A stretch of DNA of 64,000 bases from NCBI GenBank assembly GCA_028522875.1, contig GCA_028522875.1_3659.1; one strand, given 5' to 3'. Positions 48,274-59,665 of the stretch are shown in pieces (within the stretch, counting starts at the first letter, position 1; each line of letters starts with the position of its first letter). A program made the position numbers and the translations under genes. The stretch comes from a phage. The notes below the pieces were generated by a model that searched no databases, had not been told where the DNA came from, and saw only the letters and a program-made list of their open reading frames with translations.

Positions 48274-49038
48274 TTGAAATTTATCTACAAAGAACACTAC
48301 CACAAAGGTGTTGTGTGGAGTCTATTTGACGGGTCTGGTGGTGCAGTCATTGACTGGGCAAAAGCTGGGTACCTGTGCCTGTGCTTTAATGCAGAAGGTG
48401 CTGATCACGGCAGTTATGCAGAGGTGATAACCGATCATCCCAACATTTACTATGTGGATTATTGGATTGACCCATGGTTCCCTCAGGAAACTTTTTGCAT
48501 GTACCCAGCTCCAGACTTTATTCTTGCATTTCCTCCGTGCACGCATTTAGCGGTATCAGGTGCTGCACATTTTAAGAAAAAGCTGGCTAAGGACCCTATG
48601 ATCCAAATTAATGCTGTAAAGGATGCTCGGGTTGCGGAAGAGCTGGGAGAGATTTACGATTGCCCGTGGCATGTAGAGAATCCTGTAGGTGTTATGTCCA
48701 CACTGTGGCGCAAACCTGATTACCGTTTTCATCCTTCTGACTATGGCGGGTATTTACCGGAGGATGATGTAAACCCTTGGTTTCCTGAATTTATAGCTCC
48801 ACGCGATGCCTATCCAAAAATAACTTGCGGCTGGATAGGTAATGGATTTATAATCCCGGCCACAAAACCTGTCCCGCAAATAGTTGACGCGGTTAGCGGG
48901 TATTCCATGCAACACGCTAAGCTAGGTGGAAAAAGTGCAAGGACGAAGATGATTCGAAGCCTCACACCCCGTGGCTGGGCAAAAGCCGTATTCTTAGCAA
49001 ACGAGCCTGTAGTAAGGAGCAGAATTAATGGGAAGTAA
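48274..49038 (+). CDS. DNA (cytosine-5)-methyltransferase-like protein (short form)
   Basis: Motif I LFDGSGG (FxGxGG), motif IV FPPCTHLAVSGA (PC), motif VI HVENPVG (ENV-like); probable TTG start 48274 after aggaga since track start 48244 lies in terminator. Confidence 0.45.
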   Translation: MKFIYKEHYHKGVVWSLFDGSGGAVIDWAKAGYLCLCFNAEGADHGSYAEVITDHPNIYYVDYWIDPWFPQETFCMYPAPDFILAFPPCTHLAVSGAAHFKKKLAKDPMIQINAVKDARVAEELGEIYDCPWHVENPVGVMSTLWRKPDYRFHPSDYGGYLPEDDVNPWFPEFIAPRDAYPKITCGWIGNGFIIPATKPVPQIVDAVSGYSMQHAKLGGKSARTKMIRSLTPRGWAKAVFLANEPVVRSRINGK

Positions 49039-51106
49039 ATTTATGGCATCTGCATATAACCGTTTCGGTGAGCCAAACCCGAAAGCAACTAAGTATAAAA
49101 GTGGGGGAAGTGTGAAACGAGACTATCGTGATGAAAAAGAGGTTGAAACTGTAGAGACTGTTTTAGAAAATACTAAAATCGTCCCTGTCCCACAACAAAA
49201 TATCGGTCTGATGGCTGCACAATATTTTGGTGTGCGATCAGCATTGTCCCAAGAAGACGGTGTGACAGTTACTGCAACATATTTCCCATATTACGACCGC
49301 TACGGGAATCTGTCCGGTTTCAAAAAGCGTGACTGGACGATCCCCAAAGAGCAACGTGGGCACTTTACGACGGTTGGGATCGTAAAGGCTAACTCCCAAA
49401 TGTTTGGGCAAAAGCTGTGTGCATCTTCTAACAACCGTAAGCAGATTAACGTTTGTGAGGGGGAAGGCGATGTTATTGCAGCATGGCAGGCTGCATATCA
49501 GATACAAGTAAAAGGGATTCTCACCAACGCTAAAGCCCCGGCAAAGGTGAAACAGTGGGCTAAAGAGGTCCAGGACGGGATCGATGCAGTTATCAACGGG
49601 GGTGATCTGGCAGGAAAACCCTGCCTACCTTTTGTTGGAATTAACTGTGGATGTGCAAACGCAGTAGATACTTTTGCAAACAATGAGAAATTTATCCGTA
49701 GCTACGGAACAGTGGTCCTTGCAATGGACAACGATGCAGCTAACGAGGTAGAGAAGCAAAAACACGTTATCAAAGGTGTTGAAGCCACACATAATATCGC
49801 GGCATTTTTGATGGCTGATAACGTTTACCACGTGGAATACCCCAGCGAGGTAAACGACCCTGACGGTGTAAAAGATATCCGTGACATGCTGAAGGCTAAA
49901 AAGCTGGAAGATATTGTCAACATGTTCCGTCACCCAGTCAAATATGTGCCCGATGCTGTATCTGATTTAGAAGACTTCTCCATTGAATCTCTTCGTAAGA
50001 AGACTTCTAATGGCGTAGATATCAGCGCGGAGTTCCCTAAATTGCAGAAGATGCTGAAAGGACTCCACAAAGGCACCTTGATGATGCTGACAGGCCCATC
50101 TGGCGGTGGTAAAACAACTGTAGCCAAGAAACTAGAGCACTGCATTGCAAAATACTTGATGGATCCGACATGCCCTAAAGCCGATGATTATGAAGAGGAT
50201 GATCGCCTGTGTCTGATTCACCTTGAAGAGGACCCTGAGGAAGCAATTAACTCTCTATACGCCAACCAGTTGGGGTTTGATGTTAAAGAGTTTGTTGAAG
50301 ACCCTAGTCAGTTCCTGACTGATCAGGAGCATGCTGAGATTCACCAATCTTGGGCCAAGGCTGGAAAAATCAAAGTGTTCAAGCATTTTGGGTCTATTCC
50401 TGTAGATGAGTTGATCACTAAGCTTAAACAAATGGTGTGTCTGTATCACTGCCGTTATATTGTGCTGGATCACCTGTCCATGGTAATTTCAGGGCTTAAT
50501 GTTAAGGATGAGCGCAAAGAACTTGACATGGCTATGACGCAACTAGCCGCGTTCTGTAAGCAGTTTAATGTATTTATCTTGGTGATCGCTCACCTGAAAC
50601 GCACAGAGATTGTGCCTCCAAAGGACAAGGATGGGAATCCGTTACCTTTTTGGTATCCTGTACGAAAAGAGAACCTTCGGGGTAGTGCCGGATTGGAGCA
50701 ACTTAGCTGGGTAGTTGTTGGGGTGGAGGCAGAAGAGATGGTGGATCGTTCCCGTGGACGTGTCCGACTGGTAGGTCTTAAAAACCGCCCAGCAAAAACG
50801 TTAGGCATTGCGGATACCTTAGTTATGGATCCCCACACAGGTAAGTTCCATGATGCCAGCAACTGGTACTGGGACAAAGAAATGCAGATGTTCACAGACG
50901 GCGAAGGTGGGGAGGTTGTTTGGAGACCTCAAGCTATGTTTGAGGATCAAGAGCACGCAGTTGTAGAAACACCTGTAGGTAGGGTTGTGGCTGATAAGGT
51001 TGTAACTCCTACTGTTAACCCTGTTGACACACAAGAAGACCTTCCGTATGATGATCCGTCCTCTGACCCTGTTCCAGGTTTTGAAGACGATGAAACACCT
51101 TTTTAA
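49028..51106 (+). CDS. primase-helicase (Toprim primase fused to DnaB/gp4-like helicase)
   Basis: Toprim-like CEGEGDVIA and LAMDNDAANE; helicase Walker A LTGPSGGGKTT and Walker B-like YIVLDHLS; acidic C-terminal tail. Confidence 0.65.
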   Translation: MGSKFMASAYNRFGEPNPKATKYKSGGSVKRDYRDEKEVETVETVLENTKIVPVPQQNIGLMAAQYFGVRSALSQEDGVTVTATYFPYYDRYGNLSGFKKRDWTIPKEQRGHFTTVGIVKANSQMFGQKLCASSNNRKQINVCEGEGDVIAAWQAAYQIQVKGILTNAKAPAKVKQWAKEVQDGIDAVINGGDLAGKPCLPFVGINCGCANAVDTFANNEKFIRSYGTVVLAMDNDAANEVEKQKHVIKGVEATHNIAAFLMADNVYHVEYPSEVNDPDGVKDIRDMLKAKKLEDIVNMFRHPVKYVPDAVSDLEDFSIESLRKKTSNGVDISAEFPKLQKMLKGLHKGTLMMLTGPSGGGKTTVAKKLEHCIAKYLMDPTCPKADDYEEDDRLCLIHLEEDPEEAINSLYANQLGFDVKEFVEDPSQFLTDQEHAEIHQSWAKAGKIKVFKHFGSIPVDELITKLKQMVCLYHCRYIVLDHLSMVISGLNVKDERKELDMAMTQLAAFCKQFNVFILVIAHLKRTEIVPPKDKDGNPLPFWYPVRKENLRGSAGLEQLSWVVVGVEAEEMVDRSRGRVRLVGLKNRPAKTLGIADTLVMDPHTGKFHDASNWYWDKEMQMFTDGEGGEVVWRPQAMFEDQEHAVVETPVGRVVADKVVTPTVNPVDTQEDLPYDDPSSDPVPGFEDDETPF

Positions 51107-51164: not shown

Positions 51165-54100
51165 ATGAGCATGTGGTCTTTCGATTTTGAGTCATCCGGT
51201 TTGCTGGAAGACCCAGATCTTTATTATCACTGCGGCCTGTTTAAAGAGCTGAATAAGAACCGTTTTATGCTGTTCCTTCCTCTAAATGACCGCACACACT
51301 ACTCTGAAGAGGATATAGAGAAGGCTAAGAACTTTATTCTGGCAAAGAAAACTCTTTATAAAGATTTTGAAGTTCGCATAGCAGATTTTTCAGAGTTGGA
51401 AGGTTGGCTTACAGGAAATTCTGACTGGTCACCCACAGCTTTGAACTGCCACAACTGCTACAGCTACGACTTTATGCTGATGGAGAGATTGTCCGGTATT
51501 CATTTTGATATGTTCCGTGACCCTAAGTGTATGGGGACTATCAACGACCACCAGGTTAATCTGTTTGATACGTTGGCGATGAGCCGAATCTTGTGGCCTG
51601 ATCGCCCTTTACCAAAAGGTTGTCCGGACTCTGTATTCAACCCGGTTACTAAGAAAATGCAGCCTGTTGGTCCTCACGGCCTTATGGCATGGGGCTACGC
51701 CCTTGGTAACCAGAAAGTTCAAATTGATGACTGGCGCGATCTTCCGTTGTGGAAGTATGTGGATCGTGTATTCGAGGACGTTATCATCCAGGAGCTGCTC
51801 TGGAAAGAGCTGGTAGCGGAATCAAAAGGTGTATTCTACGGCAAATCTGACATGCAGAACTTTATGTACGATCCAGCCAAAGAGAAGCCGAAAGGGTTCA
51901 AGAAGATCACCTGGAAGAACGCACTACGTCGAGGCATGCTGCAGCACTTCCTGATGGAGCTGCAGGCCCGTCAGGGTGTATACTTCGACATAGATGGAGC
52001 TATTGCTTTACGTGACCGTTGCGATGCGTGGATGAAAGAAATCGCTGATCGTGTTGAACCACAACTACCTTTAAAAGAGCTGTCAATGTCTCAGCGGCCC
52101 AAGTTCCCTGAAAAGCCGTTTAACCAAGACGGGACAATCTCTAATAATGGTTGGAAATGGTTAAAAGATAAGCTTGGCTATCCTGTAGACATGAGCGCTT
52201 TAGATTTCAAAGCCCCGCCTAAGCGAGCATTTACCTCTACAGGAGATGTCAGCAAGATGGGGATAAAATGGTGTGAAGAGATGGGCTGCAAAGACCCCGA
52301 TAAGATGGCTGATTTCTTGAGAGGCTATATTAAGGGCACTTCCACACCTCACCCTTTGCCTAAAGAGCTGATGGATCAGGCAATAAGTGATCTACAGCAG
52401 AAGCGAATGCCGGACTGCAAGATACCTATGAAAATCAGCAATCAGGACGACATTAAGCGGTATCTGATCAGTGCTGGCTGGCTACCGACAATGTGGAGAA
52501 CTAAGGATGTAACTAAAGATAGCAAGAAGAAAGCTCTACCTGATGCGGATGTTGATGCACGAGTATATGCATATATGGACGAGCTTTTAGAGTCAGAGTA
52601 TTGTGACCTGATTATCAACTTCTGGAACAAAACTGATGCCAAGTTCCAGACAACTGTGCACAAGTTCCGAAGCTTTCCTAACTCTGAAAGGATTAAAAAG
52701 GAAGTATTCGGGAAAATACGTAGAAAAGCCAGAGCACTTATTACTTCTCCGCAACTGAAAGATACGTTTGGACACCTGTGTCCGAATCTTGAAAAATTGA
52801 ACGGAGAGATGGCTAAAGATATCGTCTTGTGGTTATCATTGCGAAACCGCAGATCAGTCCTTGATCCAATCAAGGAGGATAAGGTTGATACTGGTCTTCT
52901 TAATCACCCACGTTTGAAGATTGACCATAAGCTTCCTGCTAAAAGCTCTGGATTAACAAACACTTCCAGACAGAAACACAGTATTTGTGCAAACATGCCT
53001 AAACCATCCCCTAAAGTGGTTATGGGTAAAGAGATGCGCAGTCTGTGGGGTGTTCCTCCTGGATACTTTCAGATCGGTATTGACGGGTCCAACTTAGAGC
53101 AGCTTATCGGGGCTTGGGGTGCCTTTGAGTTCGACAACGGCCTGTATTACGATGTTGTAAGTAACGGCGATGCACATTGTTATTCAGGAGATACACAAAT
53201 TCTCACGGAGAAAGGGTGGGTGAGGTTTGAAGATCTTGATCCGGGAACACAAGTGTTCCAGTACGATCACAACACCTCGTCAATGAACCTTGTTACTCCA
53301 TTAAATTACGTTAAGCGTAGTTATTATGGAGATATGTATCATTTCCACAACAGTAGTGTGGATTTTATGGTTACAGATCAACACAGGATGCTGACTGTGG
53401 ATCACAGAAGCAATAAATTGTTTGAAGATTTGGCAAAAGACCTGAAAGCAGGTAAAGGGTCTAATTCAGGAAGAAGGTTTATCCATGCGGCAGAGTTTTA
53501 TGGGAATACAGCCTTATCTCCTGCCCAGGTTAATTTGCTTATTGCTATTCACGATGATGGGCACTTGCATACAAATAAGGACGGCAGCATCGTGTGCAGG
53601 ATTCAGGTCGGAAAGGGAAGAAAAGTTGCAACGCTTTTAGATACTTTTTCTGCTCTAAGCCTTAGTTATGTAGAGCAGAGCGGGAAAACCACAAAAGGAG
53701 GCTTACTGGCGAGAAGGTTCCAATTCCACGTTCCGTCTTGGGTATTTGAGTTTTTGGACAGCAATAAGGATTTCACCTACAACCTGATGAACCTTGATAA
53801 AGAATCTAAAAACCTGTTTATAGCTTCTTTATCTAACTGGGACGGGTGGGTATCTTCAGAAGGTGGAAAGGTTGCTTACTACTCCCAGGCCGAGTGTAGG
53901 AAGAAATCTGTAGAGGTGGTGTCTGCGCTGGCTACTCAGTGTGGTTTACGGAATAATACGGTGGCGATTCACAAAAAAGGTCGTGCCGTGCAGCACAGAA
54001 TCACAATTGGTAGCAAACAGAGAGCAGGGTTGCTGACACTATCTAAAGAGTCTGTCGAGGTGAGCGGTTCTTTGGTTTATTGCGTTACCGTCCCTTCTGG

Positions 54101-54557
54101 AGCAATCATTGTGAGAAGGAATGGTAAAGTGGCAGTGTGCGGTAACTGTAATAACGCCAAAGCTTACTCTTCTGTAGCAGGCAAGGAGATTTCCCGTAAC
54201 GATGGTAAGCCTATCACGTATGGGGTTATGTACGGGGCACAAAAAGATAAAGTTGCAGATATGCTGGACATCTCTCCAGAGTTGGGACAAAGGGTAATCG
54301 ATGCACTCTGGGATGCCAACCCTGGTCTCAAGGGGCGCAAAGAGGATCTGGAGAAATTCTGGGAAGCAACTGGTAAGAAGTTTATCTACTCTTTTGATGG
54401 TCATGCTATCTGGACCAGATCTAAACACTCTTTACTTAATGCATACCAACAGAATGGTGGTGCATCGCTGTGTGACTTAGTTGGGATACTTATGCACCAC
54501 CAAATGGTGAAGCGTGGGTGGTACGATGAAGGTGTTCGTCGTATTATTTATTACCAT
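51165..54557 (+). CDS. DNA polymerase, family A (T7-like), exon 1; contains an in-frame intein
   Basis: 3'-5' exo motif FDFESSG; motif A IGIDGSNLEQLIGAW; motif B KPITYGVMYG; ORF stops right after ...IIYYH-K at motif C position. Confidence 0.8.
53178..54146 (+). mobile_element. intein (Hint domain with degenerate LAGLIDADG-like endonuclease region) in DNA polymerase
   Basis: 323-codon insert between pol motifs A and B: starts CYSGDTQILTEKGWVRFEDL (block A), TxxH block B at VTDQHRMLT, ends ...RRNGKVAVCGN with +1 Cys; flanks align with T7 pol NGDIHTKNQIA. Confidence 0.6.
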
Positions 54558-54833
54558 AAATAACATTGTGGCTTCATAGAGTAATCTATGTCGAATAACC
54601 TCTTTAACTGCGGGAAGCCTAAACCTTATGGCAAGGTAATCCGCAACGAAGCGCTCAAAAGAGCGAACGCTCAGAGGCCATTCCGAAAGGAAGTAGACCA
54701 GCAAGTGCGGTCGAAATGGGAGGATTCCTGTGGTTGCTTATCATAGGAATATGAGATGGTCCGATCCTACGTGAAAACGTATGGCTATGCACGTAATGGT
54801 GCGGGGTAGCTTAACGACCTACCTGAACTATTG
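54558..54833 (+). ncRNA. group I self-splicing intron (no ORF) interrupting DNA polymerase motif C
   Basis: 5' exon ends in U (54557), intron ends in G (54833); P1 exon CCAU with intron GUGG (54567-54570); core elements P CUGCGGGAAG (54607-54616), Q AAUCCGCAAC (54637-54646), R GUAGACCAGC (54692-54701), S GAGAUGGUCCG (54752-54762); splicing restores YYH-DEYQ. Confidence 0.75.
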
Positions 54834-55187
54834 GATGAGTACCAACTTCAGGTCCCTGACACGCCTAAGTATAAGACTGTGTACACCTTCGACACAATTG
54901 AAGAATTGGAAGCATTTAAGGCAGAGCAGGAGGCCAAACTTCATGTGTTTGACGGTCATAAGTACAAAAAGGCACGCAAGGATGAAAACGGAAACGAAGT
55001 GGTTGACAGAGACGGAAACACGGTGTACGATCCTATCCTGAACGATGACGGAAAGCTTGAACTTATCTGGAGCCCTGTGGGTGAAATGGTGGTGCATTGC
55101 TTCTGGCAAGCTTCTAAAATGATGGGCGTTCCATTCCAGATCACAGGTGAATACTTGTGTGGTCGGAACTGGGGTGATTGTCACTAA
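54834..55187 (+). CDS. DNA polymerase, family A, exon 2 (C-terminal part)
   Basis: Begins GAT GAG (DE of motif C HDE) right after intron-terminal G; C-terminus ...GRNWGDCH parallels T7 DNA polymerase ...GPNWAICH. Confidence 0.75.
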   Translation, partial: DEYQLQVPDTPKYKTVYTFDTIEELEAFKAEQEAKLHVFDGHKYKKARKDENGNEVVDRDGNTVYDPILNDDGKLELIWSPVGEMVVHCFWQASKMMGVPFQITGEYLCGRNWGDCH

Positions 55188-58012: not shown

Positions 58013-58378
58013 ATGGAACAAATGAACGATCAAGCGTCGGTTGCGATGAACGAGCAAGAACAACCTCAAGAATTTTTCTTAGGGTTAAGTAAAGATCAAG
58101 TGTCTCTTTTGCTAGTGCTTTCTTCTTTCATGGGAAGACTTCAGGAGCTCACACAACAACCGGAGGCTGAACAATTATTTCAGGCCCTGCGCGAAGAAGA
58201 AAAATATCGTCGTTTGGACTATGCCTTAGGTTGGGTAGCTCAACAACGAGATATGTTGATGGCCCTCTCTGGGACCACAAGTTTTGCAATGGGCCTGTTG
58301 GCTCAAGTTCAGGACAAATTAATTCAAGCAGGGTTTGCACACACGGCAAACACTAACGAAGAACAAGGAGACAAATAA
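58013..58378 (+). CDS. hypothetical protein
   Basis: 121 aa; RBS ggag. Confidence 0.45.
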   Translation: MEQMNDQASVAMNEQEQPQEFFLGLSKDQVSLLLVLSSFMGRLQELTQQPEAEQLFQALREEEKYRRLDYALGWVAQQRDMLMALSGTTSFAMGLLAQVQDKLIQAGFAHTANTNEEQGDK

Positions 58379-59604
58379 TGAGCGTTATTCAACAATTCGC
58401 TAACCCGATGAATCCGCGTGAAACTGTTTTACTGGCTCACGGTATGATCAAGCGTGTTAGCATCAAACCTATTAAAGGGGCTGATCCTGCAACAGGTATT
58501 AAAACCACCGTGTGGCAAGGTAAGAAAATTGAATCCAGCCACACCATCTCTTTACTGATTTCTGAACTGGATTCCTCTGATAACCTGCTTCAAGGTGGCG
58601 AAGAAGTCTGGATCAGCATGGGTGATAAGCTGCTTAAACCGGGTCATCAAGACTCTGTCTCTGTTAAGATTGATGACAAGTGGGAAACCGTAACACCAGG
58701 ATGGATCGTAAATATCCCTTTGAAGGCAAACGAGCATAACGGTAAGACCTATTACAAAGGCTCACTGGCTAAGATGGTCAAGCTGGGTGCAGGAGAGGCT
58801 CCAGCAGCGACTCAGCAGCAAAAACAGCAACAAGGTGCACAATCACAAGGTCAGAAGCAGAAACCTCAGCAGAATGCCAATCAGGACGTTTTACGCATCT
58901 ATGGCGATGTGACTCAGATTGTTGGCAACGTGGTTACTGTTAATGACCACAAGATCGGCGAAGGTGCTATGGTTGTCACGGATGAGCAGCTTAAAGACCT
59001 GGTGGTAGGTGGTCGTGTTGCAGCCATTGTTGACAAAGCCACCGGAAACATTATCAGTGGTTTCAAAGCCTATCCACCTAAGGCAGAGAACGGCACCCAA
59101 GGTTCTGGTGGCAAGCGTAAATCCTCTTACGACCCTATCGGTGTGGAGACGGGGCATAGCATCAATGCGTTGCAGATCATCCTGGATCGCGGGTTTAAGG
59201 TAGACGACCCACTAGGCGTGGCTAAAACACTGCACGTAGTCACCATTGAGCTTAAGAAAGAGTATGCTCAAGCCACCAACCGAACTGAAGATGAAGTAGG
59301 TGCCAGTGTCGGTAATGCGGTGTTGAACGCTTGTCGCCGTATTAACAAGAAAACGAAAGTTGATGATTTTGCAGCGGCAATTACTGCAGAAGCAAAAGAT
59401 GTCTTGACTAATCTGGCTGAGCCGTTGTACGATTGGATCAAGAACGGTTCTGGGTCCACTGACCATCAAGAACCCCAAGCTGCCAAACAGGAAGCAGCTC
59501 CACAGCAAAACACTGTAGACGCTCCTCCTGTAAATGATGAGGAAGATGACCCAATGGATCAGAATCCAGCACAGTACTCCTTTGATGATGACATCCCTTT
59601 TTAA
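58378..59604 (+). CDS. SSB-like protein with Gln-rich linker and bacterial-SSB-type acidic C-terminal tip (DDDIPF)
   Basis: 408 aa; RBS aaggag; linker ATQQQKQQQGAQSQGQKQKPQQ; C-terminus ...DEEDDPMDQNPAQYSFDDDIPF ends like E. coli SSB (DDDIPF); in replication gene neighbourhood. Confidence 0.5.
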   Translation: MSVIQQFANPMNPRETVLLAHGMIKRVSIKPIKGADPATGIKTTVWQGKKIESSHTISLLISELDSSDNLLQGGEEVWISMGDKLLKPGHQDSVSVKIDDKWETVTPGWIVNIPLKANEHNGKTYYKGSLAKMVKLGAGEAPAATQQQKQQQGAQSQGQKQKPQQNANQDVLRIYGDVTQIVGNVVTVNDHKIGEGAMVVTDEQLKDLVVGGRVAAIVDKATGNIISGFKAYPPKAENGTQGSGGKRKSSYDPIGVETGHSINALQIILDRGFKVDDPLGVAKTLHVVTIELKKEYAQATNRTEDEVGASVGNAVLNACRRINKKTKVDDFAAAITAEAKDVLTNLAEPLYDWIKNGSGSTDHQEPQAAKQEAAPQQNTVDAPPVNDEEDDPMDQNPAQYSFDDDIPF

Positions 59605-59619
59605 CAATTAGTTAACATA

Positions 59620-59647
59620 GCCCTGCCCGAAAGGGTGGGGCATTTTT
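59620..59647 (+). terminator. rho-independent terminator (copy 2 of repeated element)
   Basis: gccctgcccgaaagggtggggc hairpin followed by attttt; identical to 48229-48250. Confidence 0.55.
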
Positions 59648-59665
59648 GTATAAGGAGATCTGAAA

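Follow-up and report, generated by a model that had tools for sequence, protein, structure and literature searches.

The 64,000-nucleotide stretch of phage DNA analyzed here, called the window below, encodes a 408-residue protein that is probably the phage's own SSB (a protein that binds single-stranded DNA), a non-canonical one used in replication and recombination. The protein ends ...YSFDDDIPF, and its last six to seven residues are those of the E. coli SSB tip. A preliminary description of the DNA had reported such an ending for this open reading frame, and it is borne out by the sequence and by the annotated E. coli ssb product, which ends ...EPPMDFDDDIPF. The core of the finding is already known, as a near-identical ortholog, Bas52_0087, was described as SSB-like with a C-tip in a preprint dated 30 April 2026 (bioRxiv 10.64898/2026.04.29.721553). 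What we add is a three-module model, a conserved helical domain that holds both residues altered in defense-escape mutants, the finding that kinship with SSBs by sequence is confined to the tail, and a search for a second SSB. The gain beyond the preprint is incremental.

The window belongs to an rV5-like Vequintavirus, an E. coli phage type. Over the 20 kb around the SSB-like gene its DNA is 92-95% identical to rV5-like Vequintavirus phages, and about 115 of their genomes encode a "hypothetical protein" with 95-99% identity to the window's protein. The gene and its immediate surroundings are as follows.

58013-58378, plus strand: 121-aa open reading frame of phrog_7310 (unknown function), directly upstream of the SSB-like gene
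58365-58370, plus strand: Shine-Dalgarno sequence AAGGAG, 7 nt 5' of the SSB-like ATG, within GAACAAGGAGACAAATAATGAGC
58378-59604, plus strand: SSB-like coding sequence, complete (408 aa and stop), family phrog_4477, ortholog of Bas52_0087 and bas48_0087
59620-59651, plus strand: intrinsic-terminator-like hairpin (59620-59641) and T-run, 16 nt 3' of the SSB-like stop

The reading frame opens with ATG and closes with ...NPAQYSFDDDIPF followed by TAA. Its ATG overlaps the TAA stop of the 121-aa phrog_7310 frame in the sequence TAATG, suggesting the two genes may be translationally coupled. Phage KpS11 likewise has a phrog_7310 homolog (34% identity, E 2e-15) immediately upstream of its SSB-like gene, and in the phi92-like phage ESCO5 an unrelated gene takes its place. 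The phrog_7310 product may be a Vequintavirinae-specific partner. The hairpin downstream has a 9-bp stem with seven GC pairs and a GAAA loop.

The SSB-like gene is positioned in the replication gene cluster, downstream of two genes in the window.

49028-51106: primase/helicase gene
51165 onward: DNA polymerase gene

Bas48 (CarlMeissner), a curated BASEL genome, has its ortholog, bas48_0087, about 3.2 kb downstream of the genes for primase/helicase and DNA polymerase, and in phi92-like phages a distance of about 1.7 kb separates the homolog from DNA polymerase I, which is upstream of it. Positions 1-135,800 of the Bas48 annotation (the genome up to its last 1.8 kb) list a polymerase, primase/helicase, helicase, ligase, exonucleases, and EndoVII, with neither an SSB nor a recombinase among them. 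We also searched the window and these loci by tblastn with E. coli SSB, whose sequence was identical to the annotated ssb product, and with provisional sequences of T4 gp32 and T7 gp2.5. The sole match was the tail of the SSB-like gene itself.

The polymerase gene has features of its own. Compared with the Bas48 polymerase, the window's open reading frame (51165-54563, 1132 aa) carries an in-frame insertion of 324 aa between residues 671 and 673 (window 53178-54149). The N-terminus of the insertion matches a Hint domain weakly (PF13403, E 7.5e-5, under the gathering score), and the insertion is probably an intein. A group I catalytic intron at 54548-54783 (Rfam RF00028, E 4e-16; 64.7 bits, gathering score 50) splits the gene between Bas48 residues 808 and 809, leaving 54834-55184 as the last exon.

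An AlphaFold2 model of the full-length SSB-like protein, built on a 27-sequence family alignment, has three confident domains joined by disordered linkers and followed by a disordered tail.

58378-58797, plus strand: N-terminal beta-rich OB-like domain (aa 1-140), the presumed ssDNA-binding module, from the AlphaFold2 model
58798-58881, plus strand: Gln-rich disordered linker 1 (aa 141-168), pLDDT below 50, glutamine at 12 of 28 positions
58882-59085, plus strand: small middle beta barrel with a minimal OB-like fold (aa 169-236), from the model, family occupancy about 0.3
59086-59124, plus strand: second disordered linker, short and basic (aa 237-249), pLDDT below 50
59125-59445, plus strand: C-terminal four-helix domain (aa 250-356), from the AlphaFold2 model
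59446-59583, plus strand: disordered acidic tail rich in Pro, Gln, Glu, and Asp (aa 357-402), from low pLDDT and composition
59584-59601, plus strand: C-terminal tip DDDIPF (aa 403-408), the same hexapeptide as the E. coli SSB-Ct

In the model the ordered parts are slightly shorter than these segments, with the beta-rich domain at residues 1-138, the barrel at 171-232, and the four helices at 253-356. The strands of the middle barrel are predicted to run strand-strand-strand-short helix-strand-strand. In the four-helix domain the long helices all have pLDDT above 90 in the full-length model, and modeled alone the domain reaches a pLDDT of 92.4 and a pTM of 0.84. No annotated fold relative turned up for it. 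Including the tip, the tail (aa 357-408) has a net charge of -12 and, from residue 359 on, pLDDT below 50 at all but three isolated residues. The OB fold expected of the canonical SSB family is present at the level of predicted structure, as an OB-like N-domain and a small OB-like barrel; structure prediction had been proposed as a check for such a fold. The best structural matches of the protein are ssDNA-binding OB folds. The OB assignment is itself a predicted one, made from the model. Two other points in the preliminary description stood in part. A disordered tail does precede the tip, as had been said of a Gln-rich flexible linker, but the strongly Gln-rich stretch is residues 141-168, between the first and second domains. 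The protein is indeed longer than canonical SSB (408 against 178 aa), with two extra modules, the barrel (169-236) and the four-helix domain (250-356), in place of the single extra central domain proposed.

By sequence, only the tail of the protein resembles an SSB. A profile search of the PDB matched the tail of E. coli SSB (E 0.019), and the PDB sequence and profile searches together returned only that tail and fusion constructs bearing the tail peptide, with no matches for the folded domains. In tblastn the acidic tail aligned to residues 135-178 of E. coli SSB (E 0.009). The NCBIfam SSB models TIGR00621 and PRK09010 likewise matched the tail alone, at 12-23 bits compared with cut-offs of 54-260, and for the PHROG SSB families matches were confined to the final 40 residues of a short-form family member. 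Pfam, PF00436 included, gave no match at E ≤1 for the window protein and 26 relatives, and eight further divergent family members had no Pfam match at E ≤0.1. Detection of the OB fold by sequence profile, which had been proposed as a check, failed: with hhalign the profiles of the N-terminal, middle, and C-terminal domains each aligned to the E. coli SSB OB domain with a probability below 1%. Aligning the N-domain profile with that of the middle domain also stayed below 1%, giving no sign of an internal duplication. No OB domain scoring above the curated cut-off of the canonical SSB family was thus found in the SSB-like protein, and neither sequence nor fold similarity to gp32 (a Zn-binding OB protein) or gp2.5 was detected. 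The whole protein, residues 1-408, falls in phrog_4477 (E 5e-173), a family of "unknown function".

Searched with a profile of this family, 1.84 billion representatives yielded 240 clusters at E ≤1e-3. Two architectures are found in a non-redundant set of 143 members. In about 100 short members (233-305 aa) the N-domain is followed by the helical domain and the tail; some 43 long ones (323-418 aa) add the middle barrel, an accessory module missing from roughly 70% of the family. The N-domain has conserved residues at G22, H55, G82, K97, G108, and G122 and aromatics at 78, 102, and 120 (W78 and W102 among them). Conservation across the family is highest in the four-helix domain, with conserved positions D252 (119 of 143 members), G255, G259, H260, N263, K293, G308, and G312. 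Among isolated phages, the family is limited to the Vequintavirinae, the Stephanstirmvirinae (phi92-like), and related large myoviruses (for example CR3, phiTE, Hena1, and ABPH49). In three members (P0040-P0042 in alignment A1) the N-terminal OB domain is divergent and the linker and middle barrel are near-identical to those of P0007-P0039, a mosaic that indicates recombination at domain boundaries.

Like canonical SSBs, the protein has a disordered linker leading to an acidic D-D-D-[IL]-P-F tip at the extreme C-terminus. In the 143-member alignment the tip columns are conserved (D403 in 109 of 139, D404 in 103 of 139, D405 in 111 of 139, P407 in 136 of 141, and F408 in 134 of 142). With P407 and F408 kept in about 95% of these relatives, the tip is not a chance match. 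An ending of the form acidic-x-[ILVM]PF is found in 144 of 204 collected relatives, the remainder being mostly fragments or proteins with an acidic run and then F or W at the end. The window and E. coli SSB have all eight tip residues in common while using the same codon for only two of the eight, which argues that the peptide is held by purifying selection. The window and the phi92-like ESCO5 homolog likewise have two of eight codons in common. Recent capture of the window gene's tip from host ssb is ruled out by this low codon agreement.

ESCO5 itself looks different at this site. The final 13 codons of its gp225 (L002:6526-6564) encode EPPMDFDDDIPF and the stop. Nine of the 13 are identical to those of chromosomal ssb (L009:601-639), the TGA stop is common to both, and its closest ssb match reaches 92% nucleotide identity across 39 nt. 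This codon agreement is weakly suggestive of capture of a host ssb tail in the phi92-like (ESCO5) lineage.

Beyond the IPF, 15 of the 204 relatives continue for 13-16 residues, including the isolate KpS11, a 98%-identical metagenomic phage, and very divergent family members. At one locus (L008) the source of the extension can be read directly. An insertion of about 650 bp (L008:3725-4367) begins right after the IPF codons, at the counterpart of window position 59601/59602, and homology to the window resumes at the terminator hairpin, whose sequence is conserved downstream of the insert. The insertion appends 15 residues, APVGLQYGKSRIHAL, to the SSB-like protein and codes for a 207-aa protein of phrog_1035 ("endonuclease VII", E 6e-40) that also matches several HNH endonuclease families; its start codon lies within the extension. 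By these matches, the insert is classed as a free-standing homing-endonuclease-type cassette. Programmed readthrough or a second linear motif is ruled out as the source of the extension, which at L008 is the 5' edge of the cassette. Extensions are found in very divergent members as well, suggesting that the conserved DNA encoding the tip may be a site of repeated insertion or homing. In the window the gene has a plain TAA stop and the extension sequence is absent. Host partners of SSB use the carboxylate of the terminal Phe of the SSB-Ct. A post-IPF extension would bury this carboxylate, suggesting that a free tip may not be an absolute requirement.

Bas52_0087 (QXV84166.1) is encoded by the Escherichia phage RudolfGeigy (MZ501102, 75981-77207). 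The window protein is identical to it at 403 of 408 positions (98.8%), the substitutions being A38T, A221D, N323D, S358A, and A369T, and the two agree in D252, Y351, the FDDDIPF tip, and genomic position. In the preprint, mutants of Bas52 escaping the DRT10/UG17 reverse-transcriptase defense were isolated, each with a single missense change in Bas52_0087, D252V or Y351C (bioRxiv 10.64898/2026.04.29.721553). Its authors called the protein "SSB-like", noting a conserved FDDDIPF resembling the E. coli SSB C-tip and an SSB-like fold according to Phold (bioRxiv 10.64898/2026.04.29.721553). Our results support the same interpretation, offered independently in the preliminary description, for the window protein. 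Added wild-type Bas52_0087 strengthened DRT10 restriction during infection, and the protein expressed alone neither affected E. coli viability nor triggered DRT10 (bioRxiv 10.64898/2026.04.29.721553). Overexpression of SbcB (ExoI) weakened the defense, and competition between Bas52_0087 and SbcB was proposed (bioRxiv 10.64898/2026.04.29.721553). Papers on KpAvs2 (PMC11564622) and retron Eco2 (PMC12916289) also mention the Vequintavirinae but concern different genes.

Both escape alleles are missense, which fits an essential gene. The two positions, D252 and Y351, are in the four-helix domain, and the preprint gives an "oligomerisation interface" reading (bioRxiv 10.64898/2026.04.29.721553). 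Where the preprint described two OB-folds and a stretch of disorder at the C-terminus, our models add the conserved four-helix domain at 250-356. From the near-identity of the two proteins, the window protein would be expected to be required for DRT10 (UG17) activation during infection as well, a requirement established genetically for Bas52_0087 only.

Going by the fold prediction, the setting of the gene, and the lack of an alternative SSB, one or both OB modules may bind ssDNA, coating that of the phage during replication and recombination. The helical domain, judging by its conservation, the position of the escape residues, and the interface reading of the preprint, could serve in self-assembly or cooperativity, and perhaps in docking of phage replisome proteins. 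Tip identity, tip conservation, and the SbcB genetics of the preprint point to presentation of the tip to host partners. The flexible tail would offer DDDIPF to ExoI/SbcB, RecQ, PriA, Pol III chi, and others, in their hydrophobic and basic pockets. In this way the tip might bring host SSB-interacting proteins to phage ssDNA in competition with host SSB, and the altered ssDNA metabolism could be the signal sensed by RT-based defenses such as DRT10.

The protein could instead be a decoy or hub that uses its tip to titrate or redirect host SSB partners, for example by neutralizing ExoI/SbcB, RecQ, or PriA, with beta domains that are scaffolds or bind something other than ssDNA. The confinement of SSB resemblance by sequence to the tail, the strong selection on the tip, and the link the preprint makes between Bas52_0087 and SbcB dosage, including the proposed SbcB competition, are in keeping with this. 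However, a titrator of essential SSB partners would not be expected to be harmless to E. coli when expressed alone, as Bas52_0087 is. The folded domains are also conserved beyond what a scaffold needs and find their best structural matches in ssDNA-binding OB folds, the gene sits in the replication module of a phage with no other SSB found, and some relatives extend past the tip. We consider a decoy or hub unlikely.

Were it a mediator of recombination or a single-strand annealing protein, the SSB-like protein would combine an OB fold and a helical domain in the manner of RecO and act on SSB-coated DNA; it would then fill the apparent recombinase/annealase gap left by the Bas48 annotation (1-135,800). 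Known mediators, though, bind the SSB tip and do not carry one, while a disordered linker with an acidic tip is a hallmark of SSBs themselves. RecO structures score no better as matches than generic OB folds, and a zinc-finger motif is absent from the SSB-like protein. A role of this kind is quite improbable. That the tip is a functionless, passive relic of captured host ssb DNA, an idea compatible at most with the nine of 13 codons and the TGA that ESCO5 has in common with ssb, is most improbable, as six of the eight tip codons of the window show synonymous differences relative to host ssb and to ESCO5 alike with the peptide kept, and the tip is retained in relatives down to about 25-35% identity, where a relic would have decayed.

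As a phage SSB, the protein can be compared with several known systems. Like E. coli SSB (PF00436/TIGR00621) and the plasmid and prophage SSBs with DDDIPF, it has a predicted OB module, then a low-complexity disordered linker, then the identical acidic tip. It differs from E. coli SSB in length (408 against 178 aa), in its added barrel and four-helix domain, and in an OB module with undetectable sequence homology. Its oligomerization probably differs from the OB-mediated tetramer of E. coli SSB. T7 gp2.5 and T4 gp32 are phage SSBs built on an OB fold, in which an acidic C-terminal tail organizes replisome contacts, and gp2.5 ends in an essential Phe. Neither has sequence similarity to the SSB-like protein (with provisional query sequences), and both lack a four-helix domain and have tails that bind phage proteins, with no copy of the host SSB-Ct. 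The phi92-like ESCO5 gp225 (295 aa) is also of phrog_4477, with an OB-like N-domain, a helical domain, and the tail EPPMDFDDDIPF. As a short form it lacks the middle barrel of the window protein.

A broader reading, which we offer tentatively, is that the rV5/phi92-type protein represents a third phage SSB architecture: an OB fold that cannot be linked to any SSB family by sequence, a four-helix assembly domain specific to the family, and a host-copied SSB-Ct. Here the helical domain, and not the OB fold or the tip, would be what DRT10-type defenses read, the tip would hijack ExoI-like partners onto phage DNA, and an endonuclease cassette would repeatedly home to the tip-coding DNA. Phage SSBs are increasingly recognized as frequent triggers of RT-based immunity (retron Eco8, DRT9, and DRT10). 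Across the rV5-like and phi92-like phages, large myoviruses of E. coli, Klebsiella, and Salmonella that are used in phage therapy and biocontrol, this family is the SSB candidate. Recognizing a non-canonical OB protein with an exact host SSB-Ct and escape sites in its helical domain would improve annotation and give biochemistry a target.

In current records nearly all family members are labeled "hypothetical". A few are called "single-stranded DNA-binding protein" (ESCO5, ESCO9, and ESCO25/37 among them), and the KpS11 protein is an "ssDNA-binding domain-containing protein". These SSB labels probably derive from tail-only matches. About 20 unannotated records of the series MG0656xx (for example MG065659, "Campylobacter phage C5", and MG065635, "C12") encode proteins 97-98.5% identical to the E. 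coli rV5-like protein. Their Campylobacter jejuni host labels look doubtful, contamination or mislabeling being possible.
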